This document shows positions 271 through 38,212 of a DNA stretch of 41,610 nt, piece after piece. Position numbers and translations under genes: made by a program. The stretch lies in contig CAJINV010000001.1 of NCBI GenBank assembly GCA_905178155.1, positions 5,075,992 to 5,117,601 on the forward strand, in the 5' to 3' direction. The DNA comes from Amoebophrya sp. A120. Its lineage: Eukaryota > Protista > Dinoflagellata. The notes beneath the pieces are model-generated. The model saw nothing but the letters and a program-made list of their open reading frames with translations, was not told the origin of the DNA and searched no databases. Every line of letters begins with the position of its first letter. The first letter of the stretch is position 1.

Positions 271-2918
271 TCAGTTTAGTATCAAACAGACCTCGGGCAC
301 CGCTTTCCATTCGGCGAATTTCTCGCGAAACTGTTTTGCGTATAACCCGCTCAGGTGTTACAATCTCAAACGTTACAATAGAATCTGGAATTTGTGTTGC
401 AAGAAGTGCATGATCTACCCTACTCCCACAGGATTGCGCATGACAAGTTCTGGAGTCCCAATCCGCACTACAATCTGGCGAAATTTGTATTGCAAAAAGT
501 GGAACGCTGTCCGAGTCTGTCATGTTGATCATGCAAGACAAATCTCAGATTCTATTGTAACGTTTGAGATTGTAACGTTTGAGCAGGTCATATTGCGGTC
601 TCCTCGTTTTTGAACTTCAAACAGACGCGTATCAAATGCAAAAATGTCTGGGTCTGGAAACTTGTGATGCTGTGTGGCGTCTCATGATGAGGCCACAAGT
701 GCTGGCTCAGCATGACAAGTTTCTGAGCTTCTAGGTGTTGCCAATTCCGCATGACAAACTGCGCTTCTGCATCACAGAAAAATGGAGCTCTTGGGTAACG
801 TGCATGACAGATTTAAGAGTCATGCCAGACAAGCATGACAAACATGCATTCTTCCAGACCCAGACACTTTTACACTTGATAACGCGCTCCACGGACCCGT
901 CTTCGACAAACGCGTTGAAAACTGCGGTCTTTGGATTGCCCTCGTTCTCGGAGATCGCTGTGATGAGGGCGAATTTTATTTTCGCGATTTTCATATTTGT
1001 ATTTCTGAGTCTGACTCTGAGGCCTACGCCGTGGTCATGCATTAGCATTACACCGAAGCAGAACGCAGTCAGTCTCAGTGGCCAGCTCAAAAACCAGAAA
1101 GAAACTGGCTGCATTTGATTTTGATTGCAAACACTAAAAAAAGAGAGTGAAAAAAATGCAAATACCAAGCTCCGAGCGAACCGGCGTTTGCAGCAAAATT
1201 CGCCCCGTCTTGTCCTGGTGGAGGCAGAAGCTCACCGAATTCTGCGCACGATCGTACAGAAGTTTCCCTTCGCCATTTCCGACGTCGGTCCAGTGCTCAT
1301 CCGGTTCCAGCGTGAACCGGTACAGCTTGCACCGGGCCAAGAAAATTAGTTCTGGTTCGCTGCTCGCAGGAGAAACCACTTTTTTGCTAGCCTCTTTCAC
1401 CGGAAGATGCAGGCTCGGTTGCCAATCTGTGATATTGCGTTGAGATTATCTGCGAACCCCGGAGGCGCTATCGTCGCAGAGCGGCGCATCTAAAAAGCCA
1501 AACTGTGGTAGGCCAGGCTGTCAAAATGATGTAAATATTACGAATACATACTCAAGCTTTTAAGATTTAGAGAAAAAAAGCAAATAAATGGAAAAAGAGA
1601 TTATACTCGGCACTTCCGTGACCTCTTCCTGGGGAACTAGGTCAGTCATTTTCTTCTGCTTTTCGGTCGTCTTTTGTTCTTCGGGCTCCTGGGGTCGGTG
1701 TTCCACAAGCACTTCAGTCACGTCGTTTTGCACACCGGACACACAGGTTGGGTTCTTGATCTCTCCTGCTTCACCGGCAGCAGCGGAAACTACACTTTCG
1801 GCAAAATTGCAGCAGTCTCCCTCTTGGGCCGAACGACAAACAGCTGCTCGCGTTTCCAGTTGTACAAGAGTGTTTGGTGATACTTCTGAGCCAGTGCCGA
1901 CGTCCTCGACCACGACACAATCCCTTTTTTGCAAAGTACTACTTGTAGGTGTGGCTGTGGCTGCACGACTTCTAGCGGCAGTAATACTGTTAACACTGCT
2001 CCTCCGGCGGGACAACAAGGTGTCTGCCACGTGTGTGTCAAAAGCCGGGAGGCTAGTGCCTCGGTTTCGTCTGCTCGTTTCGTCGTCTGCAACACTGTGC
2101 GGCGACGAAAATCCACTTAATGCTGCGGGGGAGGAATGAAAGAAGCCGCTTTCGCAGTCAAGTGCGGTCGACGTCGTTGTGTTAATCTCACTACTTGTAC
2201 CTGCAGTAGTTCCTGTCAACACAACTGTACTAGCTTCGTCAAGGGCATCTAGATTGCGACTGTTCTTTCCTTTTTGTCGTTCACCCGCACTACCCGGTGT
2301 CGCGTTTTTATTCAGACTGCTTTCTCTACTTGTAAGGACGGCGGGAGTGATAGAGATTTTTTCCGTCGATGATGAAAAGAAGTTCAGGGAATTTTGCCGC
2401 TCTTTGTTTAGGACATCATGATGCTCCTCTTGAAAGCTTTGTCGTACAAAGAGAGACTGCGTTCTTCTTGTGAATGGAGAAGTCGTTTCTGGGCCTGTGC
2501 TGCGGTGTACTTTATTCGGTTCGGCGGATGTGGCCGTGCCAAAAATCGTTTCGAAAATCAAGCTTGAGAAGCTCGCAGACGAAGAACGGTTCGGCTCTTC
2601 TACCTCTTCCGCTACTTGGTCCTCTTGTTCATGATCCCGATAAGCATAAGCCTGTTCCTGCTTATGGTTTATTTGCTCTACTGACTGCAAATAATCCGTG
2701 AATCCTGCGAAGTGGTCGCCCGTAAAAGTGGAACTACGAATGGAGTTCCGATTCTGGACGTGGTGGTCATAGGTGTGATTGGAAGTTTTGAAACAGTCTG
2801 TCGTGGTTTCGATACAACCTTGATTTTGACTGGCTACACTTAGGGCAGAGATGGACGCGCGTCGAGCGACTTCCTCGCTCAAGGTAGTGTCAATTTGGTC
2901 TCTAAATCCGTTTTCCAT
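271..2918 (-). CDS. Ran-binding domain (RanBP1/RanBD-type) protein with a long low-complexity N-terminus; 5-exon model, about 581 aa
   Basis: Model exons: 2918-1607, 1426-1166, 957-882, 624-593, 335-271 (1746 nt, in frame). The spliced C-terminus reads LIFLARCKLYRF...WTDVGNGEGKLL...DKTGRILLQTPVRSELAISENEGNPKTAVF...CLKFKNEETAKQFREKFAEW, the RanBD pattern. It has two GT-AG introns (1427-1606, 958-1165) and two introners. The 3' end is uncertain because a further GT intron near 290 is possible. Confidence 0.8.
341..592. mobile_element. Introner (TIR element acting as non-canonical intron), 252 bp
   Basis: TAT...ATA ends with an imperfect inverted repeat of about 60 bp. Direct repeat TTGCG at 336-340 and 593-597. 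Removal plus one repeat gives the RanBD sequence ETAKQFREKF. Confidence 0.92.
630..881. mobile_element. Introner family A, 252 bp
   Basis: TIR TATCAA.TG.AAAA.TGTCTGGGTCTGGAA. Direct repeat ACGCG at 625-629 and 882-886. Removal gives VERVCLKFKN. About 94% identical by manual count to the reverse complement of 35404-35654. Confidence 0.95.
958..1165 (-). other. GT-AG intron containing a decayed TAT...ATA inverted-repeat remnant (994-1164)
   Basis: Donor G|GTATTT and acceptor CACAG give a gap-free RanBD alignment. TATTTGTATTTCT at 994 pairs with TATTTGCATTTTT (minus strand, 1164). No direct repeat survives. Confidence 0.7.
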
Positions 2919-3866
2919 AACGAAGAAGATGAGGTTCGGTTATAATGCAAGGACGCTTCGTCTGGTGCAAACGTCAACATGTAAAAATAAAAATAGAAAT
3001 AATTGTGCGTCGACAACAATTCAACATCCGAGGATGATGAACCAACCACAGCGCAACTAAGGTCAGCCACTACACATCGCACGTCGCTGCTATTCTACTT
3101 ACGCATCATCGCATCGCCATCTGAACAAGCTCGAACGCTTATCATCTTCATCACCGCAAGAAGATCACACGGAACAATTGCTGAATGATGATGATCTTGT
3201 CTATCTTCAACAAGCTTCGAAAATCATAAGGAGCTATTGACGATCTGTCTCGTCTGTCTCGAGACATACAATGCCTCATACATCTGGTATACTCACCCTA
3301 ATGAGATCGTTTTTTGATCGGGAATAGTACACACAACACGGATCACACACAGCACCGCCCTGATCGGTTTCATGTAGGAACGTGATCCCGCGGTGGCACC
3401 GGCAATGATGATCTCCGTCTGACTGAATCTCAGAATTGATCAATAATGAAACGACTGAAGACCACACTGGAGCTTGTAACGAAAGCGAGGAGAAAACACA
3501 TGGGAAGAGCCACATCTCCGTCACAACGACGGGTGCAAGCGCTGCGTCTGCAACTACATGCCGCGAAGCAAAAATCATTTTGCCGCGACTCCCATCATGA
3601 CACACTTCGTGAGCCCACGGAATCAATCAACCAGCTACTTAACATAAAGTAGCGACATTCCTTTTACTATTTTCATCTCTTTCAGTTTCATTCTTCAATA
3701 CCTTTGTATCTTCCTTTTCAGTTTCATGCTCGTCAGCCTCAGTAGCGGTTAGTTCAATTTTCAAAGAGTTCCAGAATCTCCGGAAGCGAAACAAATCATC
3801 TTCAATTTTCAGTGGGGGGCACAACGGCGCTCACCTGTACGTAGTATCCCTTTATACAACTTTTCT

Positions 3867-5620
3867 TTACACTCCGCCCTGCTGTTGAGTCCCCAAGCTG
3901 AGTCCGATCGTGACGGGCCAGGCGCGCGCGCCGTTGATTTCCTCTGACCTGACGTTCAAGCCAGGCACCTTGGCTAAGTGCGGAAACAGCCCAAACTCTT
4001 CGTAGGCGGCGCCAGATCGATCCGGTATCCTGAGTAAAAGCGCCCCCATATCAGAGTCAAGATGGGGAATCTGCTAGACAAATCAGCCAACTTTGGTTGC
4101 TTCGCATGACAAGTTTGTCCTCGTAGTGTAATCCTGTTTAGCTAGTTCAGAAGCATCACAGATCTAGCATAGCATGCCGATTTTAGCATCACAAATTCCA
4201 AAACACGAACAGAAAATGCTTCTCATACGGCCACGCATGAGAAACTTTTTTGGCATGCACAATTGCATCACACCTATGGGGTGGGGACGTTTCTACAAGG
4301 GATATCCGGGTGCATCTGCTCGACGTGATGCCGGAACATGGGATAGGGTGCGCCACTCGGCAAATGCCGAGCCGGCGGAGCATTATAAATCTCTTCGGTC
4401 AGGACGAACCGCGGTTCGGCGTTGGAAAAGGCTAAGAAAGCCAGGTCCGTGATGTATTTCAGCATCTCGGCCTGGGTTCTCCGCAGAGATTCCTCAAAGG
4501 CAGCGAGGAACCGGTTTTGGGGTCGTGGTGTCGGAGCAGGAGCGGGGCCTAGACCAAGAGCGGTTCGTGCCACGCGATTGATTTCAACGAGAGGCGTTCC
4601 AGCACCAGCTGTCCTTGGCATACTTACGGATAAAGATGATGAATTCGCGCTGTCCAGAGATGTCGTGGGCGATCTGTACAGTCCTTGGCCTCTTTCAAAG
4701 TCCCGCGCCAATTGGCACGAGAACAGGGGGTCAAAATCGCTGGCGTTCATCCCGTGAAATTGCATCACGACCGGTCCACGCGCCGGAAATTCCCCGTGGT
4801 CAAAAATGTCACCGATGCCGAACCACGTCCCCTCGGCGTCCATGAAATCGTAGCCTTTTTCCTTCAGAATAGCGCACACGTTCCCAAAGTGAATAGTGGC
4901 TCCGTCCGACATTTTCGGCATCGCCTGCAGCTGCGCCTCGGTAATCGAAATCATGCTGCCGCCGCTTTCCGCCGCCTTGCGGGCCAGGTCGACAAAGTAG
5001 TCCGCCGCGGCCTTCAGGTCTCGGCCCCGCTGGATGTTGGACATCTGTTGTAGATCGGCCATCGGAGTGATGCGGCAAAAATCATGTTTTTCCACCTCGC
5101 CAATAAGAAAACGGATCTTGTGAACGACATCGAGGGGGAGGCGGGCATCGCGCGACAGAATAACCACAACAGCTTTCTCACCTCCCTCTTCCACTTTTCT
5201 CCGGTTCGCGTGGAGGCAACCAAATTGCCAGGAATTCACCTGAACCGAAAAACAGTAGAATAGGAATTGGGAAACAAACTCAAACTTAACTTTATTGGTC
5301 CCGCAGCATAATTGTGTAACACCAGCTCTACGTGCGGGTCAAACTCAAAAATAAAGCTGAAAGTCATGCAAACGTCGCTAAGCCCCATTTGATCTTCCAC
5401 TACGTACCATAGCCCCCACGACTAGCTGTTGATAACGCGTCGCTCTGGTATTTTCTTCCACGGCCTCGAGTGACGAAAGCCACAGTTCGAAGGTTGTATT
5501 TCCGCTTTTCAGCAGAAGATCCGAGAAGGTTTTTTTCTTGGCTTCACGCGAGTCATCAGCATCCTCCCCTGTCGTGCGGGGCGCGACGCTTTGAGAAGAC
5601 GCTGCTGTGGAGGCCGGCAT
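3867..5620 (-). CDS. Uncharacterised tandem family, paralogue 1 (about 433 aa; F-box-like motif)
   Basis: Exons 5620-5408, 5239-4305, 4020-3867. A GT-AG intron (5240-5407) precedes VNSWQF and an introner occupies 4026-4304. Clear similarity to the three other copies. Confidence 0.85.
4026..4304. mobile_element. Introner, 279 bp
   Basis: Ends TATCCTGAGTAAAAGCGCCCCCA and (reverse complement) TATCCCTTGTAGAAACGTCCCCA. Direct repeat TCCGG at 4021-4025 and 4305-4309. Removal gives HPDRSGAAYEEFGLFPHL, matching the paralogues. Confidence 0.92.
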
Positions 5621-6597: not shown

Positions 6598-7986
6598 TCA
6601 GGGGACTGCCGAAATTGTCACGGGAAAGTGCAACACGAAATCATTATCAAATTGGGGAACTACTTGCAGGCCCGAAAACGTCCGCAGATGGTTTAACATC
6701 CGAAACTCGAACCTGTCTTCGAAACGTGCGTGAACGGCTTCCAGATCCCGGTCGAACATCGGATAGCGCACCCCGTTGGGCAGGCGAGGCGCGGCGTCGT
6801 ATATCTCCTCCGTTAGGACAAAGTTAGCGTCTGCATTGGCAAAGGCTTGAAGAGCGAGATCCGTGATGTAGTTTGCGACCTCGTCGCGTGTCACACGCAG
6901 GGCTGCTTCAAATGCTCCAAAAAATCTATTTGTGGATAGATTGTTCGAACCCACAGTAGATGACGAGCCGCCTCCGCCTCCTACTGGTAGTGATGGGGCC
7001 TGGTAGTGCCCGCGCCCCGCTTCCAGCTCTTTCACTATCTCCCGCATGAAGCCTGTTTGCAGCTGCGCGGACTGCGTTTCGTTAAACTGCATCACGATGG
7101 GATAACTGTCGTATGGGAAATTCACCGACCGGCTGGGATGGAATTCACGTCCGTCTCCGGTTTCGCTTGTGAATGTGTAGTCCCTGTCGTACAAAATTGC
7201 GAAAACATTACCGAGGCAGGGGGCAATGCCCTCTGACAGCTTCGGCATGGACGCAACATGCGCTTCTGTTATGAGCAGCTTGTCCCCTCCGCGCTCCGCC
7301 TCCTTCCGCGCCAAGTTCACGAAGTACTCCGCGGCGAGCTTGTAATCGCGCCCGCGTTGCCGATCGGAAATGCGCATCAGTTCATCACTTTGCATTATTG
7401 CGGTCGGTCTGCGCTCGACATTGCCGATAAACGCGCGAATCCTGTTCACGACGTCTAGCGGGAAACGCTTGTGTGATTCAACGACAACAGGGACAGATTT
7501 ACCTTCCCTCGCTGCCTCTTCAACTCTCTTCTTGTTCTGGTGAAGCATCCCAAACTGCCAAGCGTTCACCTATTTCCATTCATTTCGACGAGGACGATCG
7601 AACTATCAATACAAGCATCAGCACGCACGACTGCCACCAAACTCAAGCAACACAATTCCAGTCCTAAGGTGGGACTAAAGAAAGTCAGGTGGAAAGCAGG
7701 ATGGTTCGTTGTACTTTAAATTGTTAACCATAACAGCGAGAATTGAATAACTGCGATCCTGAAGATATTCCAACATTTAGTTATTTACCTGAGCGCCCAC
7801 AACGAGTTTTTGATACCGAAGCGCACGACTTTCGGCTTCCACATTTTCAAGCTCACCGAGCCACCCATCGAAGGTTGCTGTCTTTCCGCTCCCTAGCAGC
7901 AGGTCAGAAAATGTTTTCTTTTTCCCGACTTCTTGCTTTTCTCCAGCATTCCCCGCTTCCGCTGCAGTCGGGAGAGACGCTGCCAT
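6598..7986 (-). CDS. Uncharacterised tandem family, paralogue 2 (about 389 aa)
   Basis: Exons 7986-7789 and 7569-6598. Phase-0 GT-AG intron 7570-7788 before VNAWQF. Confidence 0.87.
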
Positions 7987-8617: not shown

Positions 8618-8655
8618 AACCCTAACCCTGGAACCCTAAACAAAAACCCTAAACC
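8618..8655 (+). repeat. Short degenerate interstitial telomere-like tract (CCCTAA/CCCTAAA)
   Basis: aaccctaaccctggaaccctaaacaaaaaccctaaacc. Confidence 0.4.
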
Positions 8656-9403
8656 AGCCCTCCCACCACAAATCGTGCGCCAGTGGTTCCGCGGTTCTCT
8701 TGGAGGTGACACATCGATCAATTTGGGATATCTGAGACGATCTTCGTAAAAAATTGGATAAACGGTGTTGACGTATCATGGTCTTCTGCTCAATCGTACA
8801 ATTTCATAGCTTTCTTGCAGAAACGGAATCGGAAACATTGACATGTTATAGTGCGATCTATCAGTAAGCTCAGTCTTACACGGTGCTGTTACTTCTTAAA
8901 GTTGTGTTTTTTATTTGTAAAAAAAAGTTGAAGGCTGAGCGTGTTCATCATGTTTTCTTTTTATTTTGTAATCCCGCTCTCGACTTACCTTTTTCTCCCT
9001 GATGGGAAAGCGAAAAAATCAAGCACCTGAAAATTCCATGGCGCCCTTGATGAAAGCGACACGAGGAGCCGCTTAGTTCTTCTTCATAGAAGACTTCATC
9101 ACCGTCTTGTTCATCGGCTTCTTCACGTGATAGCGGCGGTGGTTGGGTATGGAAGGATGCTCACGGGCGGTCGTCGTGTTTCATGTCTCACAATCTCAAT
9201 CATACACAAAATCGGCCGAATATCATTCTTTTACACTTTTTCTTTTTGTAGTGATACATGAGAAATCGACGCAACCCACCTAGCAGGTTGCGGGTAGTAC
9301 AAGAAGGCGCATTCTCAGTGCCGATACTATCGCGCACGCATAAAAATATCTCTATCTGCCGGGCGGAAATCGGCTACAAAAAAAATGAAAACAAGTAGAG
9401 ACA

Positions 9404-10123
9404 TCACCAACGACCGCCCCAATTACACATCACTTCGATACGGATGAAACCCATCTTCGCAGCGTAAATCACCTCCGGCTCATCGCGGTCAGCCGCGTTG
9501 TTGACACGACGGCGGGCCGCCGGATTCAGAATCGTTTTCGTGGTGGACAGACAGTGAAAGTCCCCCTTCGCGTTTCCGTTCGGGAAGAGCACGCTCATGG
9601 GAATCTTCTTCACCACCTTCACCTTCCGGTACATCACGTTTTCCGTGATGCCGGACCCAACCGCACGCGACTGGAAGACCACCTCCTGGTCCAGCGGCGT
9701 CACCACGCGCGCCAGCGCGTTGTGCCCCCCGGCGGCGTTCCGCGGCACGTTGATCTCCTTGATGACCCACTGCGACCCCGGCGGAATGCACATTTCCTTG
9801 TACCATTCGCGCATGCGGCCGGTCTCCGTGTAGAACTGCTTGTCCTCGTTCGAGACGAAGGGCGACGCGTTGATCAGCTTCTTGATCTTCTCCAGCGCCA
9901 GGCTGGTAAACTTGAACCCGGTGCTGGCGGTGTACACGTCCTTGTCCTTCTTCATCTCGTCCACCACCTCCGAGCTGCGCGGGCCGTTGCCGACCCGCAT
10001 CACGGTTTTGCTCCCCGTATTCCACTTGTCCTGGCACAGACCGCCCTCGTATGCCATGAAGTGAACCGGGTACGCCGACATCACCATGGTGAGGTCCTCC
10101 AGAACGTCGCTGTTCGGCGCCAT
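9404..10123 (-). CDS. Hypothetical protein, 239 aa
   Basis: ATG-initiated ORF with strong G/C-ending codon bias and ordinary protein composition. No family recognised. A further 3' exon (about 9073-9180) is possible. Confidence 0.7.
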   Translation of the reverse strand: MAPNSDVLEDLTMVMSAYPVHFMAYEGGLCQDKWNTGSKTVMRVGNGPRSSEVVDEMKKDKDVYTASTGFKFTSLALEKIKKLINASPFVSNEDKQFYTETGRMREWYKEMCIPPGSQWVIKEINVPRNAAGGHNALARVVTPLDQEVVFQSRAVGSGITENVMYRKVKVVKKIPMSVLFPNGNAKGDFHCLSTTKTILNPAARRRVNNAADRDEPEVIYAAKMGFIRIEVMCNWGGRW

Positions 10124-11318
10124 AGTTTCTTTCGCTTCTGTGGGGCGTGTTCCAAAGCGAAGAGAGAAGTTGGAAAAATGAATGTAACAAGAGGAAATGC
10201 TCAGCTCGTGCTTCTCGACTTCGATTTATTTCCTAAACCCATATAGACCCTGAAAACCCTACAACTACAAAGCTAGCACAAAATAACGAGTTCCTAGCAT
10301 AGGCACTGTTGATATGATTTGACGGGTGGAGCTGGAGGTAGCGACTATTTATTAGCTTTTTCGATTTCCACAGAAAATTAAGGTTAATCATCAGAGAGAT
10401 GCATGTGCATCCTAATTCTTGCATTTATTTTCGGTTAAGACCGTAATCTAATGGATGCATCATTTGGATCTTCCAAAACCAAATGTGAATCCGAGCGTGA
10501 CAGACTCTGTATCCGTGCTATTTACTCATCTATCATGTATGTATGTTTTAAAATTTTCTAAGCTATGATCTCCCGCACTGCTGTAGTAGTTGATGCGGAA
10601 TCGTCAAGACCGAACACCGATTGGGGCAAGCAGACATCGATTTGTACCACAACACACCGACACCGTCTCAAAAACGAAAACAGACTGGACGAGCCGGGGT
10701 TGTTGACCTGGCGCTGGCCGCGTGTATATCAATTATCTGAGAACCGAAACAAATTGGTGACGACCGAGAATGAATAGGAAAACCGCATGACGACGATTCC
10801 ATTTGGTTGCGCACCGAGTTCATCAAGAGCAGCAAGTGTCTTCTTTTCTTGGAGGAGGTTTAGAAGTAGGAGTAGCTAAATATTTGTATGTAACTAACCG
10901 CGCATGAACCAAGCCTGCTGCAGCAGCGAATATGATTTTTTACGCTGCCAGAACCTCAATCCATGTATCGTATCGAAAGCAAAGAACATCTTATCCTCCT
11001 GGCAGCAGAAAGTATAAGTACCTATTTGTAAAGTAATCCCTTTGGCCGCTGCGTGCGTGAACTGGTGCAGACATCGGCGCAGGTTGTTATTTGATGCAAT
11101 TTCTTCATCAAAGCACTAGATTGTACTCAGTTCCATCTCGTTTCCGTCAACGAGATTTTCATTTTACAAAGCAGAGCTCTTTCTACTTTCTGAATCCTCT
11201 ACTTCTCCCGCCCTACTAGCATCATGTTTATAATTATATCTCGCTGCTCAAACCCGCACTTCTTTAGTACAGAGCGGCCGCCGTCGCAGAGATTTGCAAT
11301 TGATGTATCAAGCGAAGT

Positions 11319-12680
11319 TCACCGCTTAAGATACACCTTGAGCGGAAACCGACCGCCATCATCGGGCGTCTTCACACCAAGTCCGGGAACTAGCTGAATT
11401 CGATAATACATCGCGAACTCGTAATAAATATCGATAGTATCCCATGCGGGATGAAAATCTTTAAGATCAGCGGTGTAAAGTGGATACGTTTTTCCATTCG
11501 GCAGCTTCGGCCCCGCTTCGTACATTTCCTCGGTGAGTAGAAAAGACATATCTGCTTGCGCAAACGATTTTTCTGCTTCGTCGACTATGTAATTGAGCAC
11601 TTTGACGCGCGTTTTACGAAGAGCTGCTTCCAAGATGCCCGCAAGTTTAGTACCACCTGTCACTGGTACAGTCTGCGTGCTGTTCTCCCCTGATTCATGA
11701 TCTCTGGGACCGCGACCGGGGTCGCTTTCATCCGCATATATGCCGCTCTTGTTCTCTAGGTCTTTCAAGAGGGGCGCCGCAAAGGTTGACAAATCTTGGT
11801 CGCTGAAGTGAGCGTTGAAGCAAATCGAGAACGGGAACGCGTTGGGGTCTGGTCTCACGGTGTCAGAGAAGTACTCTTCACCCTCTGCGTCGTAAATGTC
11901 GAATCCTTTCACTTCCAGCGCAGCGAGGACATTACCGATGTGCGAAGTGCTCCCATCCGACATTTTCGGCGCTGCTGCAAACAATTCCCGTGAAATTTGA
12001 AAACTGCCTGCGCCCTTGGCTGCATCCGCGTGCATTAGACCTATAAAGTGGTCGGCAATTTTCAGCCAATCGCGTCCGCACAGCTTGTCAGAGATCCTCT
12101 CGAGCTGGGCTCGACGAAGCTTGTCGCTGCAGACCGCTTTGGCGCTTCCCAAGAAGGAACGAAATAGTGCTCACGACGTCGGACGGCAAAGAAACTCTGG
12201 TAGAGGAAGGCATCGCAGATGTTCGCTTCTTGTGGAAGACGCAGAACTGCCAAGCGTTTACCTGATTTATTTGCGCCAAAATGCAACAGAGCAGCTTTAT
12301 TTGGTTTTTTGGTGTCAAGACCTTCGTCCATTTTTTCATCTATCAGTATCATCTGCTTAATATCAACACAGAGGGTGTTACGCGAACGGATTATCGCACC
12401 ATTCCAAACGACGTAGAACAAGAATCACGGGGAAGACAATCATGAATCAAGCCTCCGACAGAAAATCACGTACCTGCGCACCCAGGACCCGTTTTTGATA
12501 ACGGAGTTCGCGAGTCTTTGCTTCGGTATCCTCCAAGGATATCAGCCAGTCATTGTAGCTCACGTTCCGACCAGCGCGCACAAGAAGGTCGTTGAAGGTC
12601 TTCTGCCTCTGTTGCTGGGACACGTTGGTCGTGCCATCGTTGGCTGTCGAGGAGCTCGCCGAGGAGGAGGAGGACGCCAT
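11319..12680 (-). pseudogene. Tandem family paralogue 3 with a +1 frameshift (pseudogene or assembly error)
   Basis: Exon 1 12680-12474, GT-AG intron 12262-12473, exon 2 12261-11319 = 943 nt (one extra base). Similarity to the paralogues switches frame at CTT GGG AAG (about 12148-12150). Confidence 0.72.
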
Positions 12681-13225
12681 GATCTTGTAATTCTGCTTCT
12701 TGCAGCCTTGGTTTCACCAATAATTTGACTTGGTACATTACTTTTTTACCTACATATTTTAGTGCTAGTGTGTGGCATTTCCATAGTCAAACATCAAACC
12801 AAGATAAACTAACGAAAATCGAAGTCAAAGGGAGAATATAGAATTCTGAACTCACCTCCAAAGGGAGAGGCAAAAAGACCCTCGATAAGCTTCATCATAC
12901 GCAACCTCGAGGACGAATACTGCCATCAATATTTTCCCACATCTCGTGCGTGAATGAGTAGTCGAACGGTTACGGGTTTGCTATGGCCAAATTGCCGCAA
13001 CCTGGCACTAACACGCTTTCGCAACGAACTTGCTTCCTCGGCTGATTCTAAAAAAATCTTCTTGCCCTTTCTTCCTTGTTGGTAAGTTTTTGGTCATTGG
13101 GTAAAAACATTGGCGGGGCGCAGTGATGCATTCGGTTTTGGGTAGGAGAGCCGTCGTATCTCTATCAAGGAGACTCTTTCCTGCTCGATGACGTTCAGAG
13201 CTTTTTTTTCGTCGATCGGATCCTA

Positions 13226-19084: not shown

Positions 19085-19104
19085 AAGGTTTCCCGGGAAA
19101 CCTT
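19085..19104. other. Perfect 20-bp palindrome
   Basis: AAGGTTTCCCGGGAAACCTT. Confidence 0.85.
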
Positions 19105-24802: not shown

Positions 24803-25636
24803 TGTGAAACAACCACAAGAAGGAAGTAGGAAAAAGCGTGAAGATGAGTCCGACGAACGTACTAGCCGTGTTCGTGTTTATAATTGTGGTACGGGCTCTA
24901 GCAGCTGTTTGCACTTGCAGCTTCTATACTGTCGTCGTGGCAATACTTTCTCGCGTCGATTTGGTACTGGTTTGCGTTTGTTTTTGGGGAAATGACATGA
25001 CGATTACGATTAGAATATGTTTACCTTGTAGTTGCAGCAAGAAACTACAGTTCTTCGGACTTAGTTGGCTGCTGCTGCCATATTCGCTTACGATTCCACA
25101 CCAGCAGAGTTAGAGCGCTCGCGACTCGCAGAACTACCACGCGTGAAGATCTGCGACGTCCAGCCAGAACAAGATCAAGACCAAGTTCAGCACACTGCAT
25201 ACCGCAAGAGCAAGTGCAAGATCTCACGACGGCGCAAATACAAAAATAGTACTTGCATACGCCAGTAGATCATATCGCATGGGAGTTGAAAGCAAACCGA
25301 GCTGACTTTTCGACCGATTTGCATCGTGCCGTCATAACTTCCAGCTCTGTCATTTGCTGTGCTCCTCAATGATATTGATCCTCGCTTGGATCATGTAGTC
25401 ACGAGTCAAGAACACACCTCCAAATCTCAAACTTGAAACAGAGCGCACTTCTATGTGAGAAGACTCTCGCCCTGGTGAGGACAATGGCGTCTGTAAATGA
25501 ATCGCTCGTCTCAATGAATGATTTGTTGGCCTTCATCTTTTTGCTTTTATGTGTTTGTACACTGCGAATGCATATGCAGTAGCCGCAAGAACGAAGTGCT
25601 GCAAAAAGTAAAGGTTGAACAATTGCGACTCTACTT

Positions 25637-28600
25637 CTACAGCAGTAGCAACGCGTCGTTGTCCGGCTCGGCCACGCATTCCTGAATCGCGTAGCCCAAC
25701 ATCTCTTGCGCAAAGGGATCGTCAGGCTGTAGAGCCAGCGCCCGGTGGTAAGATTCCACCGCCGCGTGCAGTTCGCGGTTGATGTGCCGGACGAACCCGA
25801 CGCCACAGTGCGCCGACGCGGAGCCCTGGTTCGAGGCCGCCAAGGCTTGGTGGAAGAAATCCAACGCTTTTTCGTATTCCTGGCACTTCAGGTACGCGTG
25901 CGCCAGGTTTTCCAAAAATGCGTCGAGACTGCCGTCCTGCGCGACGCCGCCAAGCTCCTGCACACGCTCCAGAAAAGCAACGGCGTGGCTGTGATACAGT
26001 ACGACGTCAATGGCTTTGAGACTGTAGTTCAAAAAGTCAATCTGAATCTTTCGAGTTCTTGCGACGCGCCTTGCATAGATACTAGTGCATGGGTTCGCTT
26101 TATTTGCTCATTCTACTATATGACTAGACGAAAAAAACACTTCTGTTTCCTATGTACGTGTATTCGTGCCGCTCGAAGGCACAGACAGCCATCTCGTTCA
26201 GCAGATTTGGATCTTTCGGCGCTATGGTGAGGCCCATGTGCAGCGCCTGCTGCGCTAGAATGAAGTTGGAGGACCGGAGGTATTCCATCCCCAAGTACAA
26301 CCAAGGAACGTGCGATCCGGGAAAAAGTCTCGAGGCCGTGCGGTACGCCGCAAGCGCCTGGTCGCTTTCTTCCTGCAGGGAAAAGGAATGGCCGTACCTA
26401 GTTTGATTCAAACAATAAATCACGACTGGATCCCACGACCCACTACGTTGCGTCATCGTCGCTACGAGCGAATGACGCGCTAGTACGCGGCTCATCGTTT
26501 CAGGTTATCCTCTGCAAGAAATAACTACTTCTGAAACGTGGCTAGTTCTAGTTGTATTGAAAAAAGTTGCAAATATTTGATTTTGCTATACGCGATCCAC
26601 GCCGGCGTAAAATTGTGGTCCAGCAGTGTGGCTTTGCCAAAGAATTTCCGGGCTGCGTCGTAGCGTTTCGAGAGGTAGTAGTAGCAGCCGGCGGCGAACC
26701 AGGCGACCGCGTATTGCGGGTAGGCATTGATTAACTGGTGCGCGATGTAGAAAACCAACGTCTTGTTCTCCGTCATCAGCAGGGAGGCGATGTGACAGGG
26801 AAGCACTTCCAGCTCGTACGGGTCCCGTTCGAGAATAGACTTCGAAACCACGTAACTCGAGGTGTAGTCGCCCTAGATGCGGAAATGGGAAAGGAAGTAG
26901 ATGAGACACTGCAGTGGCAGTGCGAGTTAAACAAAATTTTTGCACTATGTCACTCACAGATCGAAAGCACCAAGAAGGCCACCTAGAAGGTTTTTTCGCT
27001 ATGCTAATGCTTATGTAGAGCAGATAGAGATACAGCATTACGATTAAATACTTACTATACTTTGCATAATATCGACTTACCTGCTGGAAGTACTTTTCTG
27101 CGACGGTTCCGAGCACGTATGCGTTCGTGTGCAGTCGCTCTGGTAAACCAACGAGTGGCTCCTCCTTCTTGCAGTCCTCCAGCGGTTGCAGCGACAAGCG
27201 CTGCCGCTTTTGCCGCGGACCGCGTCTTCGGCGCTGTGCGATACCGGGTTTGCGCTTCAGAATGTGCTCGGCCGTGAAAGTGCTCTGCTTGCTGAACGTG
27301 GACAGCGAAGAATTGTTGCCCTCGCAATCGGAATTGCTTGTCCCACCGTGTTGTTGTTCATGCAGTGGCACACAGTAGGACACGCTCGACGAGCTGCTTT
27401 TCGCACGGTAAATGACCCGCATCCACTCATCTTCCGGTTCTAGCTGCAGTTTGTTTAAAAACCGCTCCTCTTCCGTGCTGGAAAGCAGCCCGGTGCCCAG
27501 CAACCGTGAGCTCGCTTCGTAAAGAAACGGATCATACTGGACCGCGAGCTTGTAGCAGTTCACCGCGCTTTCCCGGTTCTCAAAGTGCTCGAAGACGCGC
27601 CCCTTCAGGTACGCAAAAACCGCCCGGTTGTCGCCACGCTCGAATTGTTCGATGCCGATGCCGGAAGGCAGGCAATGTTCGTCGAGATAGCGAAGGGCTT
27701 CCTCGAACTCGCCGGCCTCCAGGTAGCTCTGAACGACGAGGAGCCTGGTAGTTTGTGAGTGCGAATTCATTTTTATGAGGATCATCATTTCAACTACTTG
27801 CCGCTGAATCTACTCAACACGCTGCTGGAGGTGGTGGTGGACGCCACAAGCCTACTTAAAATTGTGCATTTGTAATCGTCAGCAGCAACTGCATTTTACC
27901 GAAGCCGGTCTTGTGACTTCGCGGCGTCCGGATGGCGGTGCGTCAGCAAAAAGATCACCCTGGCAAACTCCTTGTTCTGGAAAAGGCACTCTGCAAGCGT
28001 GAACAAATCCTGTTGTGAAAATGAGTTTTTTCTTCACATGCGGAGTATCTTACAGCGAAATTAGAGCAGTCACATGTTGACTCAGCTCTACTGACAGCAC
28101 AAAAACCACAGCAACATCATCAATCAGTACGTCTTTTTCCTGCGACAGCGAGAAGACTTTGTCCGCTAGAAAAATCGCGGTTGGGAACAAATGCGCACGG
28201 AAAGCCGCTTGAACCCGTCTTCGTACGCGGCGAAGGGAACTTTGTGAAATGCCGCTCGAGGCAGAAGAAGAGGAACCGCCGCCACCGCTGGTTCCAGGTA
28301 TCGCGTTGGCATCTTCAACATGGGCGGGAGCTAGAATCAAATCTCCGGATCCTGCATTTGCTGCATGCAGAAATGGATTCTCTCTGTTTTGGTTTATCAT
28401 TTCATTTTTTCGACCAGATCTTCCCCCACTGTCGTTTCCACCCTTGTTCGCGGCTCTTACTGCTCCGGCAGATGAGAACAAAGGCATCTCCTGCGCTGCT
28501 CCGCCGCTCCCATTTGTCGCGTGCACGTTGCTAGTGCCTCTCCCGGAGGACATGAGCATATTTCTGTTCCCGGCGAGCGTCTCGCCAGGCACCCTGCTCT

Positions 28601-29834
28601 TCCGGAGGCCGCGCAATTCGCCCCCGGTCATGGATGCGGGCGTCCGGACCGACATAGGCAGCCCGAAGCTGCAGCTGTCGTCCTCGTCTGAACCTTCGTG
28701 GTGGAGCTGATCCGGCAACAGTTCGTGCACCCCGAACAGCTTTCCGGCAGAAGCTGTGGGCGTCAACGGCAACGGCCCCGCGCTGGAGTTGGGGCCACCA
28801 CCTCCGCTGCTCGCGACGCTGAATCCCGTACCACTGCCGGTCAGGGGGGGAGCGGACGGAGCGGTATACACGCCCATCATAGGCGGGGGCACAGCAGGAG
28901 GTGCCTCGTCTCCAGCAGGAGGGTTGACATTGTTTGTGCCTCCGGCTTCTGCATTTGTACCTCCTTGTTCTGCAGGCTGTGGCTGGTTTAGGTTTTGGTT
29001 CACCGATACAAGATTCATCCCTGGGGCAGCTGCCGTTTCGCCCGCAGCTGCAGCTCCACTGCCTTGACTGTGCGAAATAATCGCAGCGGCGCCAGCAGTT
29101 GCTCCTGGCATAGCATTCGGTATGGCCCCTCCCGTAGTACCGCCGCCCGTGGCGGAGAATAATCCCAGTGGCTGTGGTAGTTGGCTCGACGGTCCTCCGA
29201 ACAAAAAAGGATTCCAGCTGCCTGCAGCTCGCGAACGAACGTTGCCACCTGGCTGCTCCGGCGGTGTGGCCTGCGGATTGCGCTGGATGGGTGTGGCTTT
29301 CGGGACGAAAAACCCGGAATCCAATGTCGTCCTTCGCGGAGCCTGCGCGGGCGTCTCGTGAATTGTCCTGTTAAACCCACCTCCGCTTCCCGTTCCCGCG
29401 GCTGCCCCGCCGGCGGCACCCTCAACTGGAGAAGCGATGGTCTGCACAGTCCCTCCCGGGCCCGGAGCCACGGCAGCGGCTGGGCCGCCCACAGACGCAA
29501 TGCCGCCTTTGGCACTGCCACTAGATAAAAAGCCGCCCGCTAGCGGTCCCGCCCCTCCCTTTGACGAAGATGCGAATGGGGTTGGGCCGCTCAAGAGCGC
29601 AGAGCCGAGCTTCCCCCCTACGGGTGTGTTCCGTACGCTACTGCTTTGCTGAAACGCCCCACCGCGGCTGACCGAGGACGGTGCACCAATGCTGTACTGC
29701 GCATACCGTGCGGGTGCGGAGGGAACCTGGGGACCGCCCGCGGCGGGAGTGCCGCTCAGAGGAGTCTCCATGGCGCGGTGGCTACCGGGCGGGGCCGCAC
29801 TGCCGCGCCGGTTGTTGTGCAACGAGTCGCGCAT
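25637..29834 (-). CDS. CDC16: Anaphase-promoting complex subunit 6 (Cdc16/Cut9), TPR protein with a long disordered N-terminal extension
   Basis: Motifs TAIFLADKV, AVAWFAAGCYYY, ARKFFGKATLLD, AWIAYGHSFSLQEESDQALAAYRTASRLFPGSHVPWLYLGMEY, AVESYHRALAL. GT-AG introns at 28010-28130, 27745-27899, 26873-27080, 26398-26591 and about 26070-26157. Confidence 0.93.
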
Positions 29835-31992: not shown

Positions 31993-33378
31993 GGTCGGAC
32001 TAGTATCTCAGTTTCTCTGATACGGAAATTATAAGTTGTGACAGCGGGAAAAACAATCTGCTGGTTGACAACGAACGCGAGCGCACGATGGACCCGGCAA
32101 TCATATGCGGAAGAGAAAGCGAGAACACAAAAAATCTACGTCGGCTTGGCTTTGGGCGGGTTACGAGCGAATCATACAACTTCAACTCATCTTCACCCAC
32201 GGCAACCATACAAAGGATAGAAAAAAAGATAGATTCCTTGGAGCACTTCTGAGTTTTCGACTTTGGCCTTCTAGCCTGTCGCGCCAGGTCTTGATAGTAC
32301 GGCTTTTATTTTTTTAACCTCAACCCCGAATACAAATATGATGAGATTCATTTCAGAAGATGAGAACATGAGGTTACTTTTAGTAGATTCGACTTACCGA
32401 TGACCCTTTTCACTTCTCCCAACACCAACCCTGCTGAAAGTCTAGAGGCCCAAAGAGAACGAATAGATACGAAAATCCAGTAGCAGTGCCCTAAATGCTG
32501 TTTTCCGCCCGGCGTAATTCAACATTACCAATACCAACTACCGAACTATCACAGCATTTTTCAACACATGCAGACGACTCACTCGAAGGCACATGCCCCC
32601 AAAAACACAAACAGAAGCATTTTTCTCCGCGAAGCGAACCCATGCAAGAACACACGACTATCGATCCGAAAAAACGATTCATCTTGATGAGTTCGATTAC
32701 TTTCAGTTCTATTCTTCGCGCATCTATGTATGATACATATACAAGGCATCATAATGAAGTAGATGTGTACAGATTACATGCATTCTGCTGTTCGGCATCA
32801 GATGGCTCGGCTTTCCGCTGCCGCAAGAAAAGCGGACAACTGCAAATAGAAACACTTGCAATCAATCGGAAAACAAAAGGAAGGTGGTCACGGAAACTTG
32901 TTGAAATCAAATCCTCAGAATGGGTGAATGCCGAAGACCCGAATCAAAAAACCATATCGATACCGTTGGTTCTGTTTTTTGTAGCACAGATTTATATAGG
33001 AAAAGAAAGTCTCGAGCTCCATAGGTAGCCAGTGCTGTTGACATCGTCCATTGAACCGTCGTGTCGAGACGAATCGCTGAAAAAGGCACATTGTATCTGT
33101 GGCCTCTACTTTTCATAAAATCATCATGAAACGTGACGGATGCAAAAAAAAGTGAGCTGCAAAAATTTAAATTTTTAAATTTTTGTTGAACCGTATTTAC
33201 GGAACAGTCTATCTTTCCGAGACACATTAATTATTCACATCAAAGTAGAACTAGAAGCGCACTCCCACTCGAAACTATTTTGATTTTCTCTAGTACAACT
33301 TGTAGTTTTATGCATCGACTACGACTACCTATATAGCCATCAGCATAGATTGTTGTGCCACTCGACCGCGGTGTGCTG

Positions 33379-33591
33379 TCACTTGTGCTTTTTATGTTGT
33401 CCAGAATTTGGCAGGGTTGTGCCAGACGCCGCGGTTTTTGCCATTTTCTGCTGCTTCCGTTTATACCGTTCCTCGATGGCCTTTCTCTTGCTCAACTCGG
33501 CCTTCTGACGTGCGCGAGCCGACGCGTTCCATTGCCAAGCCATGAATCTGTGGATATTAGGTCGAGTAGTGGTTTGCTTCGGCTTCAACAT
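33379..33591 (-). CDS. Small basic hypothetical protein, 70 aa
   Basis: ATG-initiated K/R-rich ORF with a plausible helical segment, preceded by a pyrimidine tract and AG. Confidence 0.4.
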   Translation of the reverse strand: MLKPKQTTTRPNIHRFMAWQWNASARARQKAELSKRKAIEERYKRKQQKMAKTAASGTTLPNSGQHKKHK

Positions 33592-34070
33592 TGACGAGTT
33601 GCCTCAGAAACAAAAATGCACACTTACACGAGATACATCTTCACTGAGCGAAGATCTTAAAAGAACGTAAAGTACTTTCTTACCCAAACAATCCGAGAAA
33701 CAGGCTGGTGGCGACCAGTTGCACGACCTGTTGCACCCAGCAGGAGAAACCCTCTTCGCTGGTACCGAAAATGCTGTTTTTGGTTTTATACGCACCCCAA
33801 TCCGGACGGGAAGAATACGCACGTGAATCCTCCCGTATCTGCAAGAACGACCTCACACAAGATGCTACATGCGGAGCTTTTCACTCTGACAGGAATTCCA
33901 GCAACATCAAAGTGGACGAGCCACAAAAGATTGCTTCTAATCGGCAAGAACGTAGCGCGAAAGATGTTGATAGTGATGCGCTTATGGCCATCAGCAGCCG
34001 AAGAAGGAGGCAAGTCTAAGTGCTTAAAAGTCCTCTCGCATGTAGTTGCACTTGCACGTACAAGTCGTCC

Positions 34071-37000
34071 TTAAGAACAAGAACCTCTGTTGTAGTCATG
34101 CAGTACTTCTGCGGAGGTCTCCTGCGGACACAGGCGGATGCACAACTCGCATACGGATTCTTGCACTTTCATGCTGGCCATCTTCTGCATCATGAAGTAG
34201 TACTCCGTTTGCAGCGACTATCCAAGAAAAAAACTGTGTAAGTGTAAGTTTGTAGGAAGAGCAGCATCACAAATTCGCTTTGCATTACAGGGAAAACCTA
34301 TCATGCGCAGCTAGTACGTGGAAACACCTATGAAAGTAGCCTATGAAGCAGATCCAGCATGACAAGTGTATACAGTTTTGCACTTTCTGCATCACAGACT
34401 TACGCTCACATAGTTTTCTTCTGGCATAGCGACCGGACCTTGTCCGCGCGTTCGCTCTCATATCAAATGTAAAAGTGTCTGGGTCTGGAAGATTGCCAGG
34501 TTTACCATGCACATTTTGCATGACTCCTGATGTCTGTGATGCATGCCCTAGCGTCACAGATTTTGTGAGGGCTTCCTGATGCCTATACCGCATGACCAAT
34601 GCTCTTTCCGTGTGGCAAAACTTGAACCCTCTTTGCAGCTGCTCATGCAATACAGATTTTTTTAGAATCCAAAATCAGCATGACAAGTTGGATTCTTCCA
34701 GACCCAGACATTTTTACAGTTGATATCTCATCCAGCGCTTCGAATGTGAGTTGGATCCGCCCCGGCAGCTTATGGGAGTCGAGTGTCAGTATTGAAATCG
34801 AAAAAGTTGAATATAACTTGTAATGCTAAACCGAAAGCGAAATAATTTGTAATGCATAAAATCGATACCAGTTGGAAGCCCAATTTCCAAGCGGCCGGCG
34901 CATGACAAATTTCGGCACCGTTTACATCCAGCTTGTCATTCTGTTTAGGGACAGAAAACGTCCTTTGTCATGCTACTTTAGCAGCTCTATCGCAGACCCC
35001 AAACAGGATGACAGTCGGCCTCGCTTGCCATCCCTGCAATAGAGGCGCGCGCGCTTCATGTCTTGATGCAATTTATGCATGGAAAATCATTTCAACTTTG
35101 TCGATTTCAAACCTGACGCTTGCATACAGCTCCGGCGACTTGTAGTCTTTGAATTTGTCGAACTCTTCGCGGTTCAGAGAGCCGAAGCAGTGCACGGTGA
35201 GCTGAGAGAGCATATGAACTGCAGAAGTATCGTACTAGTATGAATCGCGTGACAAATTAGCTTAGCATGACGAATGGAATTTGTCATGCTGTTTTACCTT
35301 GGGAAAAAGATCTGTAATGCATGATTGCAATTACTACGAGTACGATACTTTTGCACAGGATAGAGCAGTTGCGAAAGCAGTTCGTGCTTGCCGCGGGCCA
35401 TGTTATCAAGTGTAAAATGTCTGGGTCTGGAAGAGTTCATGTTTGTCATGCTTGTCTAGCATGACCCTTAAATCTGTCATGCACGTTACCCAAGAGCTCC
35501 GTTTTTCTGTGATGCAGAAGCGCAGTCTGTCATGTAGAATAGGCAACACCTAGGAGCTCAGAAACTTGTCATGCTGAGCCAGCATCTGTAGCCTCATCAT
35601 GAGACGCCACCCAGCATCACAAGTTTCCAGACCCAGACATTTTTACATTTGATACATGTAGAGTTCGTACAGCTGCTTCTGCCGCACTTCCTCCCCGCCC
35701 CGCAACGCCCACTTGGAGTTCTGCACTTCCTGTCCCGACATCTTCAGACAGGTGTGCAGCAGCTTGTAGGTATCAGCGTCCCCTTGCTTTTGCACAAGTA
35801 TCCAAGAAGGGCACAAATTGACTAACACGAGGGCAAAATCGAGGTCATCTACTTCTTCTTTTCGCGGTCCTCTACTTCGAGCACGAGCGTTTCAACTTTA
35901 ATGTTCTCAAGACAATCACCTTATATCTCCATGAAGATGAACATGCAGGCCCACTAGACTACATAAAGATCATGAAGACAGTATCTATCACTATGACTAT
36001 GAGCTGCATGTAAGTACGACTGAAACTAGGTATGACATATCATTCTTGACTCCGCCTACTTCCTTGAGCAAGCCAGCACAAATCAGATAAATTTAAGTGG
36101 AGTTTTTACTACATATGCATGCACTATCATACTTACTATGATAATGCTTGTGCTGCACCTTCCACTCCCCCGCCCTTGCACGAGCACGACGGTCCTTCTG
36201 GATACAATTCAGCATTGCCACCCCGAGCTGCTGCACCGAGATGTTTTCGCGATTGAGCCACAGCATCAGGCGATGCGCGCGGTCGCCCAGCTGCTTGATT
36301 GCGTCGGTGACCTCGTCCGCCTTGTCGCTGTTGAGGTTAAACACGTTGTTCCCCAAAAACAGATCCGCGACCTCGGTGCGCATTTTCTCGATTTTGTTGT
36401 CCCGGTCCCAGAGCGAAGCGTGCTTCATGCCATCCACCTTCTCGTAGATAATCCGGTTAAACCAGTCGAACGCCAGGTACTGCGAGTCCGTTTATCCCAC
36501 AGAAAAAAGCAGGAAAATCTGCACTGCGTATCCCAAATAGCATGCTTTCAGCTCGCCAATGACAGACTCACTTTTTTTCAATTTCACTTCTGATTCTGTT
36601 AAATTATTTATTTCTTTTGCGTTTGCCAATGTGCCCTGCCTGCTTTTTGCTGTATGATATCCCCTCCTGGTTGCCCAGCGCGTCGGACAGCATCGCTTCG
36701 GCGAGCGCCTTGCTGGTCGGGTCCGCTCCGCCGCCTGTTTCTTTGTTCACGTGTGCGTTTGGGAAGAAAATCTGGCTCAGGTACAGCCGTGCCATTTTCT
36801 TGATCTCGTCGTCCGCCTGCTTCCGTTGCTTCACCTCCTCCCGCACCCGCCCATATGCGGCGTGCACGAGCTCCTTGAGAACTTTCTTCGACATAGCGCT
36901 TTTGCCGGGGAGCGCTGTTCCGTCGGGCGTAGTACTACTAGCTACAGTAGCGCCTTCTTCTCCGCTCAGTTGTTGTTCCTTTTTGGCCAGCATTTCCTGG

Positions 37001-38212
37001 GCGTGCAAGTCCTTTCCCATCTGATAGGCTGCGTCGCAGAACTCGCACTTCACCTCCCCGTTCGGCTGCTCCTTGAACAGCATGTTCGTCAGCATCGAAG
37101 CCGCCGTCGCCTTTGCGTCCAGCACATTGGAGGGGACTACACGACGACCCGCACCGAAATCAAAAAGCGTCTCGCCCTTTTTCAGCCCGAAGTCCGAGTT
37201 TGGGATCAGCATGTCGACGACGTACTCCACCTTCTCGCCGTTTTGCCGCTTGTTAATCTTCAGCTTCTATGAACTGCAAATGTATGAATATCGTACTCGT
37301 ATAAATGCATTACAAATTTGAATTTCTCAGCATGAGAGTAAAATCTGTAACTGTAATGCGGATTTTCCTTAAGAAAAAGATTTGTAATGCATGACTGCAA
37401 TACGAGTACGATAGTTTTGCACAGGATAGCTTCTGTTCGTCCAGGAGATTGGTGATGTTCTTCCCCGTTCCATCGTCCAGCGGCGGAGCCGGGGGATACT
37501 GCACATTAAACTCATCATCACCCTGCTGGTCCGAAGTTGAACTATCAGCATTTTGATTTCCAGATCCTGTCCCGGTAGAAGTTGCCGTCTGCTCCCATTC
37601 TTCATTGGCGTCCTCCTCGTCGCCTTCGTCATCGTCACCCGCACGGAACATTTTTGTCTTCTTTGCGGGAGCTGCTTCTTTTTCGGCAGCACGTTCAGCA
37701 GCGAAGGCGGGCGCTTCCGCCTCCCCTTCCTCGACATCTTCAACACCATCACCTGGATTGTTGTGGTGCTGCTCAGCCTCAGGTGCTGGAGCACCAGCAT
37801 GCTGGGCTGGACGAGAGCTAGTACTCTTAGTGGTTTGATGCTCCCGGCGAGAGAGATTCTTGCTCCCGATGGGCAGCTCCTTGTTCGCATTTTCTACTTG
37901 CACCTTTTCCACCTCCCCGGCGGTGAGTTTATCCTCCGATCTGGTTTCGACGTGGTGGTGGTCCCGCCCGGGCGTGTCCTTACTGGTCGACAATGTAGGA
38001 GGTTCGTCCGACTGCTCCTGCAGGTCATCCCGTACACGAACGACGTTGTCATGGTCGGTACTACCGTGTTGCGCAGTAGAACTTGGGACAGCAGATGTTG
38101 AGCCGGCTTTTACAGGAGCGACAACATTCGGATTCGCGTTTGCAAAAAGCCCAGCACCGCTGTAGCATAGTAGAAACGAAAAGAACGATGCCCAGGAAAT
38201 AGAACAACACAT
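34071..38212 (-). CDS. Predicted secreted hypothetical protein (about 711 aa) split by eight introner-type introns
   Basis: Signal-peptide-like start MCCSISWASFFSFLLCYSGAGLFANA. Exons 38212-37429, 37262-36660, 36487-36205, 35793-35655, 35398-35363, 35207-35127, 34765-34726, 34455-34429, 34213-34071 sum to 2136 nt in one open frame. Two junctions (36493 and 35799 elements) are less certain. Confidence 0.75.
34219..34428. mobile_element. Introner, 210 bp
   Basis: Ends TATCCAAGAAAAAAACTGTG and (reverse complement) TATGCCAGAAGAAAACTATG. Direct repeat GCGAC. Frame restored (KVRSLQTEYY). Confidence 0.9.
34461..34725. mobile_element. Introner with family A termini and a different interior, 265 bp
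   Basis: Same TATCAA...TGTCTGGGTCTGGAA TIR as 630-881. Direct repeat TCTCA. Frame restored (ALDESERAD). Confidence 0.93.
34771..35126. mobile_element. Introner, 356 bp
   Basis: TATG...CATA ends with a weak inverted repeat. Direct repeat CAGCT. Frame restored (SPELPGRIQ). Confidence 0.87.
35213..35362. mobile_element. Introner family B, 150 bp
   Basis: TATGAACTGCA...TTTTGCACAGGATA. Direct repeat GAGCA. Same ends as 37268-37428. Frame restored. Confidence 0.92.
35404..35654. mobile_element. Introner family A, 251 bp (inverted copy of 630-881)
   Basis: Direct repeat CATGT. Frame restored (YELYMARGKH). Confidence 0.95.
35799..36204. mobile_element. Probable decayed introner, 406 bp
   Basis: Ends TATCCAAGAAGG and (reverse complement) TATCCAGAAGG. 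The direct repeat is not intact. Removing the element plus 5 nt, or using the overlapping GT with a downstream AG, joins the flanking ORFs in frame. Confidence 0.5.
36493..36659. mobile_element. Introner with decayed direct repeat, 167 bp
   Basis: Ends TATCCCACAGAAAAAAGCAGG and (reverse complement) TATCATACAGCAAAAAGCAGG. Flanks CCGTT and TCCCC differ. Removing the element plus 5 nt is in frame. Confidence 0.75.
37268..37428. mobile_element. Introner family B, 161 bp
   Basis: Direct repeat GCTTC. Removal fuses the 38212 and 37230 ORFs (DEQKLKINKRQ). Confidence 0.93.

Follow-up and report, generated by a model that had tools for sequence, protein, structure and literature searches.

Amoebophrya sp. 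A120 is known to carry introner elements (Farhat et al. 2021, PMC7789003). These elements have inverted repeats starting with TAT and a run of A at positions 11-15, are bordered by short direct repeats, can form a hairpin and lack GT-AG ends. Their mean length is near 240 nucleotides (nt), they fall into many families, contain no open reading frame (ORF) and are supported by RNA sequencing. The published direct repeats are of 3-5 nt; the legend of Fig. 3 has the cut position as variable or unknown and that of S23 gives a range of 1-5 nt (PMC7789003). Here we describe a stretch of 41,610 nt of the same organism (contig CAJINV010000001.1, positions 5,075,992 to 5,117,601 of the forward strand), called the window, with 13 elements that belong to this already known class. 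In contrast to the published description, the repeat is of 5 base pairs (bp; 269 of 380 elements in related loci) and a single register of removal outlasts its loss: the cut very probably falls at a fixed place on the transcribed strand, 1 nt ahead of TAT and 4 nt beyond ATA (the 1+4 register). No statement of a fixed register was found in the literature on Amoebophrya introners, theses and subscription papers being outside the coverage, and the figure logos of PMC7789003 may show the offset.

Introns of other organisms share part of this anatomy. The nonconventional introns of Euglena have ends like those of miniature inverted-repeat transposable elements (MITEs), direct repeats, and complementary triplets whose distance from the splice sites is fixed (PMC12501133, PMC11282704), the offsets having been found through introns that do not slide (PMC12501133). 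However, the Euglena arrangement is N3-CDG ... CHG-N5-6 followed by a purine, with circular products, whereas here it is N1-TAT ... ATA-N4; the window elements have neither CDG at +4 nor CHG ahead of the final 5-6 bases. No back-joint is listed among the transcript contigs used here (runs X1-X4), a kind of data that cannot show the absence of circular RNA. The available text of PMC12501133 does not mention Amoebophrya. The MITE-derived introns of Fritillaria borealis likewise have inverted ends, target duplications and non-GT-AG borders, and their removal is attributed to an adapted U2 spliceosome (PMC11282704, PMC13326754). They prefer the ends AG-AC or AG-AT and their host conserves U1, whereas the ends here are N-T ... 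NN and U1 was not found. Within the same organism group, A120 introner family 38 has a Copia/Gypsy-like ORF inside its terminal inverted repeats (PMC12130899) and is a candidate source of transposase, but no such ORF was found in the window or in the loci scanned.

Nine of the elements keep an exact 5-bp repeat on their flanks. They had been listed, with TAT...ATA ends and a different repeat for each, in an original prediction made from the letters of the DNA, and all nine were found where it placed them (joints and length sums are those of transcript contigs; elements are named below by their first position):

341..592, minus strand: introner of 252 bp, intact 5-bp repeat, in a RanBP1-domain gene; predicted intron 337-593; joint 335>593 skips 257 nt, two of four runs
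630..881, minus strand: introner of 252 bp, intact repeat; joint 624>882 skips 257 nt, one of four runs, its shorter side just 28 letters
4026..4304, minus strand: introner of 279 bp, intact repeat; its gene is the first of four paralogues in tandem; joint 4019>4304 skips 284 nt, four of four runs
34219..34428, minus strand: introner of 210 bp, intact repeat; length sum
34461..34725, minus strand: introner of 265 bp, intact repeat; length sum
34771..35126, minus strand: introner of 356 bp, intact repeat; length sum
35213..35362, minus strand: introner of 150 bp, intact repeat; length sum
35404..35654, minus strand: introner of 251 bp, intact repeat; length sum
37268..37428, minus strand: introner of 161 bp, intact repeat; adjacent pieces of X1 contig 1, skip of 166 nt

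In the window there are 19 pairs with the bare pattern of TAT...ATA and a 5-bp repeat within 2 kilobases (kb) or less; 50 shuffles gave 9.7 on average and 19 at most, and the excess over chance is not clear. With an inverted-repeat score of at least 8 there are seven pairs against a shuffled mean of 0.02; elements 34771 and 37268 miss this cut-off, yet give self-inverted BLAST matches. The nine elements fold well beyond their shuffles (z from -3.5 to -12). Elements 630 and 35404, 93.7% identical, lie in opposite orientations and are both removed; 35213 and 37268 share 74% identity. When the four elements described below are included, mean length is 260 nt, the first three end pairs can form in 13 of 13, and eight of these have a predicted pairing probability of 0.7 or more at each of the three positions. 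Most element ends in the window match the motif published for A120 (TAT, seven variable bases, A run), with inverted repeats of 8-20 nt or more. GT-AG or GC-AG ends, expected of U2-type introns, occur in none of the 13 in any register of sliding; the lack of GT-AG had been predicted for the nine. An inverted TAT repeat with an A run, a direct repeat, removal without GT-AG and repetition in the genome are all found, and the connection first drawn to the Amoebophrya introners is borne out by the class in PMC7789003.

Transcript support comes from contigs assembled from runs X1-X4, which represent one sample. The nine intact elements are absent from them as element plus 5 nt, four through direct joints and five through an exact length sum; this is the outcome of the RNA mapping that the original prediction had proposed for its junctions. 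Between positions 1 and 14600 there are 10 joints, which correspond to six GT-AG introns, to elements 341, 630 and 4026, and to a further element at 9148. Contig 1 of run X1 (3048 nt, depth 58.8) lies in pieces on the minus strand, between 38325 and 33000, and lacks nine elements and one GT-AG intron:

33381..38272, minus strand: host gene with a predicted product of 802 amino acids, nine non-canonical introns and one GT-AG intron; X1 contig 1
33548..33683, minus strand: ordinary GT-AG intron, removed in X1 contig 1

Since this GT-AG intron is gone from the same contig, X1 contig 1 is spliced RNA. Deletion of its nine elements with 5 nt each, and of the GT-AG intron, yields a predicted message of 2841 nt with a frame of 802 codons; nine of ten anchors of this message equal the coordinates of the contig and the tenth is within repeat ambiguity. 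Five elements (34219-35654) fall in a 243-nt stretch of the contig whose short exons are unlisted, and the predicted spliced length equals it exactly. The frame of each of the three host genes becomes open once element plus 5 nt is deleted, as claimed before for the element with one repeat.

Run X5 is DNA-like, with unspliced contigs, its kind and life stage being unrecorded; its contigs are unbroken across 33000-34246 and 35631-37316 and retain three old elements and the GT-AG intron. There is also a low-depth X1 contig (3.67) inside element 33816. Removal very probably occurs at the RNA level, and the elements are confirmed as real, RNA-supported in one sample and members of a published class. 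In the raw RNA runs X9 (140 reads) and X10 (2 reads) the matches are confined to element ends (90-99% identity) joined to foreign flanks; they reach no exon and are uninformative. About 130 X9 reads, from a different sample, fall at 34677-34727 and join the end of a related element to foreign flanks, which indicates that some copies are present unspliced in RNA.

The list of nine was correct but incomplete, since the RNA exposed four further elements whose flanking repeat has decayed:

9148..9440, minus strand: old introner of 293 bp, repeat lost (1 of 5 positions match); intron 9144-9441; joint 9143>9442 skips 298 nt, unambiguous, one of four runs, depth 6; only 1+4
33816..34153, minus strand: old introner of 338 bp with TAC at one end (a U-G pair in RNA); repeat lost (2 of 5); intron 33812-34154, placed by the edge of the downstream exon and the length sum; only 1+4
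35799..36204, minus strand: old introner of 406 bp, repeat lost (1 of 5); intron 35795-36205; adjacent pieces of X1 contig 1; only 1+4
36493..36659, minus strand: old introner of 167 bp, repeat lost (1 of 5); intron 36489-36660; adjacent pieces of X1 contig 1; 1+4 or 2+3

The ends of these four elements are still paired, and each element is skipped with exactly 5 nt. The 1+4 register is the sole fit for 9148 and 35799, through direct joints, and for 33816, through the exon edge and the length sum, while 36493 fits either 1+4 or 2+3. Given the skip length, the chance that four elements agree on a register is about 0.009. Because elements without a repeat are still removed exactly, and in a common register, the 5-bp repeat is a dispensable scar of insertion and not the signal. 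The precision of removal is therefore upheld, but the repeat as the cause of that precision is not.

The frame of the gene around 9148 was also checked, and the junction was not located. In the related loci, where the mismatches fall in partly decayed repeats gave no clue to the exonic copy. A loose scan for inverted repeats that dropped the demand for a flanking repeat was too noisy (92 hits against 48-57 in three shuffles) and missed 9148, 33816 and 35799. Between two genes, at 22372-22552, there is a candidate fifth old element with inverted ends TAT and TAC, no flanking repeat and no matches in the related loci.

These related loci were gathered by a scan with the common end motif, which gave 143 loci (540,663 bases) selected by the ends of one family. 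Near-full-length matches in them number 5-145 for each of the nine intact elements and 0 for the four old ones, which fits the singletons of PMC7789003. The summed X5 depth is much higher on young than on old elements, although it is not a measure of copy number. The loci hold 380 distinct elements (in a 187-kb subset, 126 against 3 after shuffling); the scan demanded TAT at the ends, so that TAT itself is not independent there. Their flanking repeats are exact over 5 bp in 269 cases, which comprise 233 different 5-mers; 50 more match at 4/5 positions, one is an exact 4-bp repeat and none is of 6 bp. At positions 11-15 of the 760 ends the frequency of A is 0.68-0.89. The internal motif GCAT[GCT]AC occurs 14 times per kb inside elements and 1.2 times per kb outside, about 11-fold more, and families are found in both orientations relative to the inferred host strand.

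With element plus 5 nt removed, 85 of 190 sites stay open for 80 codons on each side, against 29-34 for other lengths and 5 if the element is retained. In the RPB1 gene of a related locus, six of ten removed elements lie within aligned exons and all six join in one frame; two of the junctions are identical to P0006 at all 20 residues shown, stretches that we take to be the bridge helix and the trigger loop. An exon of this RPB1 also houses a 972-bp element (L062:5792-6763) with perfect 25-bp ends and a 5-bp repeat, inside which there was neither an ORF of 90 amino acids nor a Pfam match; other long pairs of ends in the loci turned out to be chance pairings of separate elements. At L062:7308-7547 an element with one mismatch in its repeat is nested in an ordinary GT-AG intron of RPB1. 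No cognate transposase or autonomous element was recognized among 23 window ORFs, 80 of 135 long ORFs of the loci and 20 short ORFs of the 972-bp element; the end motif had no match in viral contigs, and Rfam gave none. The elements are short, have terminal inverted repeats and a target duplication of fixed length, and lack coding capacity. A MITE-like origin is supported by these features and, with precise removal, agrees with the original prediction, through the repeats in the loci and the transcript joints.

The reading that we favour, with a probability of roughly one half, is that A120-type introners are cut from the precursor messenger RNA (pre-mRNA) by a relaxed form of the ordinary spliceosome, always at the same position next to a hairpin that is predicted to run from end to end. 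A transposase from elsewhere would insert the elements at near-random sites, in either orientation, duplicating 5 bp; duplications of this size suit Copia-type integrases. In the pre-mRNA, the UAU and AUA ends are predicted to pair and to draw the two exons together, and the element leaves together with 5 nt, the cuts very probably lying 1 nt ahead of UAU and 4 nt beyond AUA. While the insertion is fresh, such a cut removes exactly one repeat's worth of bases and so restores the target gene, and later drift of the five intron-side bases would not move it. The intron start N-U-A-U would mimic G-U-A-N donors, and the spliceosome would no longer need G at +1 or a final AG, taking the 3' site from the stem. 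That the chemistry is spliceosomal we regard as an even bet.

The 1+4 register places U at +2 and A at +3, a combination shared by all 13 ordinary GT-AG donors resolved. GTA is the start of all seven RNA-supported GT-AG introns in the window and of all six resolved in RPB1 (six of seven gaps), and GTAT that of six of these 13. Since the element TAT aligns with ordinary GTA donors, a relaxed spliceosome would account for the cut no worse than a new enzyme; of the 'non-standard system' proposed originally, the lack of GT-AG stands, and new machinery is one possibility. By our reading of Table S4 in PMC7789003, T is found at +2 in all nine top A120 motifs and A at -2 in eight of them, and the A25 repeats, which start with TTA and go with TT- motifs, would again give U at +2 and A at +3. 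The repeat layout is also shared by 15% of the A120 canonical introns (PMC7789003). At young insertion sites there is a weak bias to A at the future -2 base (46/126, p 0.0015, uncorrected for 20 tests). The Fritillaria precedent, the A120 hybrid introns, this weak bias and the donor mimicry together favour a relaxed spliceosome.

Several observations weigh against the reading of a fixed register used by a relaxed spliceosome. There is no fixed base at +1 or at the last two positions, the UAU that resembles a donor would be hidden within the predicted stem, and U1 small nuclear RNA is undetected in A25 or A120. G at +1 is found in three of four old against two of nine young copies (p 0.22), and among young insertion sites neither G at +1 (39/126) nor a final AG (12/126) is favoured. 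For Euglena, with a similar stem code, the authors argue for separate machinery (PMC12501133). A codon-likelihood test of the register from DNA alone, on 29-43 imperfect elements of the loci, was weak: registers 0+5 to 2+3 scored best, and against the mirror register the one-sided p was 0.035-0.054, with signs evenly split and 0+5 and 2+3 remaining. In this test 52-66 of 95 imperfect elements were dropped because they had no clear frame, mis-bounded ones having been removed first. As to the transcripts, the RNA status of the sample behind X1-X4 is a guess, each repeat-less element rests on a single contig, and the register in the window is read from minus-strand host genes.

Some of these points would be at home with the same elements and the same 1+4 register if a dedicated structure-specific endonuclease and an RNA ligase cut at the base of the stem and joined the exons, which we consider a serious though tentative possibility. 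Such an enzyme would account for the free +1 and terminal bases, for removal in both orientations (630 and 35404) and for the failure to find U1, and it has a parallel in the Euglena introns, whose stem lies at fixed offsets and which leave as circles; moreover, a gene for a tRNA-splicing endonuclease lies about 600 bp from the element-rich host gene. However, a new enzyme has no need of the U+2 and A+3 shared with 13 of 13 ordinary donors, and A120 has many hybrid GT-AG introns that carry the same repeats, whereas hybrids are called rare in the Euglena paper. The endonuclease gene has one named orthologue, in A25, and three matches in all, and is thus probably a housekeeping neighbour. The flanks of the elements are identical and not complementary, so that a bulge-helix-bulge, the motif invoked for endonucleases of the tRNA-splicing type, cannot form. 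The broader claim that N-UAU...AUA-N4 is a genome-wide code for tens of thousands of A120-type non-canonical introns, read by a dedicated non-spliceosomal machine that measures from the hairpin base, seems to us rather unlikely; if it were true, any TAT-ended transposon insertion, in either orientation and at any site, would be silent at once.

The remaining explanations are far less probable. Guidance by the 5-bp direct repeats, with repeat-to-repeat joining of RNA and no fixed register, would suit the nine of 13 elements that have a perfect repeat and hence an ambiguous junction, but four elements with 1-2 matches of 5 are skipped as element plus 5 nt in a common register, which leaves it very little room. 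Excision from DNA at some life stage, as with the internal eliminated sequences of ciliates, so that transcripts come from excised templates, would agree with the transposon-like ends and meets a single DNA-like run of unrecorded kind and stage. It is just as improbable, since the X5 contigs retain the elements they span, the low-depth X1 contig lies within element 33816 and the skipping contig also lacks the GT-AG intron; an unequal 1+4 cut without a repeat would, in addition, be hard to obtain by symmetric transposase excision and repair. Least probable of all is that the joints are template switches of reverse transcriptase across a strong hairpin between direct repeats. This is a known substrate of the artefact (PMC4176328) and all the RNA data presumably derive from complementary DNA, but switching favours direct repeats and four elements offer none. 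Moreover, retained elements would bring stops or shifts (only 5 of 190 sites stay open), RPB1 exons included, and one contig of depth 58.8 lacks nine elements at once.

In the gene that holds 630 and 341, the exon upstream of both elements gave a match to the RanBP1 domain (PF00638, E 8.9e-6, profile positions 9-66 of 122), as had been recognized at the outset. We assume that both elements lie in the second half of that domain; the following exon of 39 amino acids, scanned alone, gave no Pfam match. Two exons of the 802-amino-acid host protein had no Pfam match at the cut-off, and a database search with this protein gave no copy. A window protein from a neighbouring gene has its closest named homologue in Amoebophrya sp. 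A25, at 33% identity, which agrees with an Amoebophrya host; the end motif of the elements points to the A120 type. Other genes in the window are:

3850-5240, 6600-7570, 11040-12260 and 13045-14170, minus strand: four tandem paralogous genes with a GT-AG intron near each 5' end; no Pfam family at the cut-off
25600-29830, minus strand: TPR-repeat gene (domain match) with apparently ordinary introns and no elements
38861-39619, minus strand: intronless gene for the catalytic subunit of tRNA-splicing endonuclease (PF01974, E 9e-17), covered by an X1 contig

Among the tandem paralogues the first alone carries an element (4026), and no empty target site could be recovered for it because the paralogues are too divergent there. 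The TPR-repeat gene presumably resembles the APC6/CDC16 subunit. GC-rich tandem repeat arrays with several unit types occupy 15100-19000 and 40050-41100, and a few CCCTAAA-like words of telomere type lie at 8620-8655 within an intergenic stretch.

At least 60% of Amoebophrya introns lack GT-AG. To a known class, the fixed register and a repeat that removal can do without add something modest but useful, since they make the way in which such introns are removed testable. A fixed 1+4 register would help gene predictors to place introner borders and would explain how transposons can be harmless in essential exons such as those of RPB1. Should the match between the 1+4 offset and the 5-bp duplication be one of design, the geometry of insertion would be linked to the geometry of splicing.

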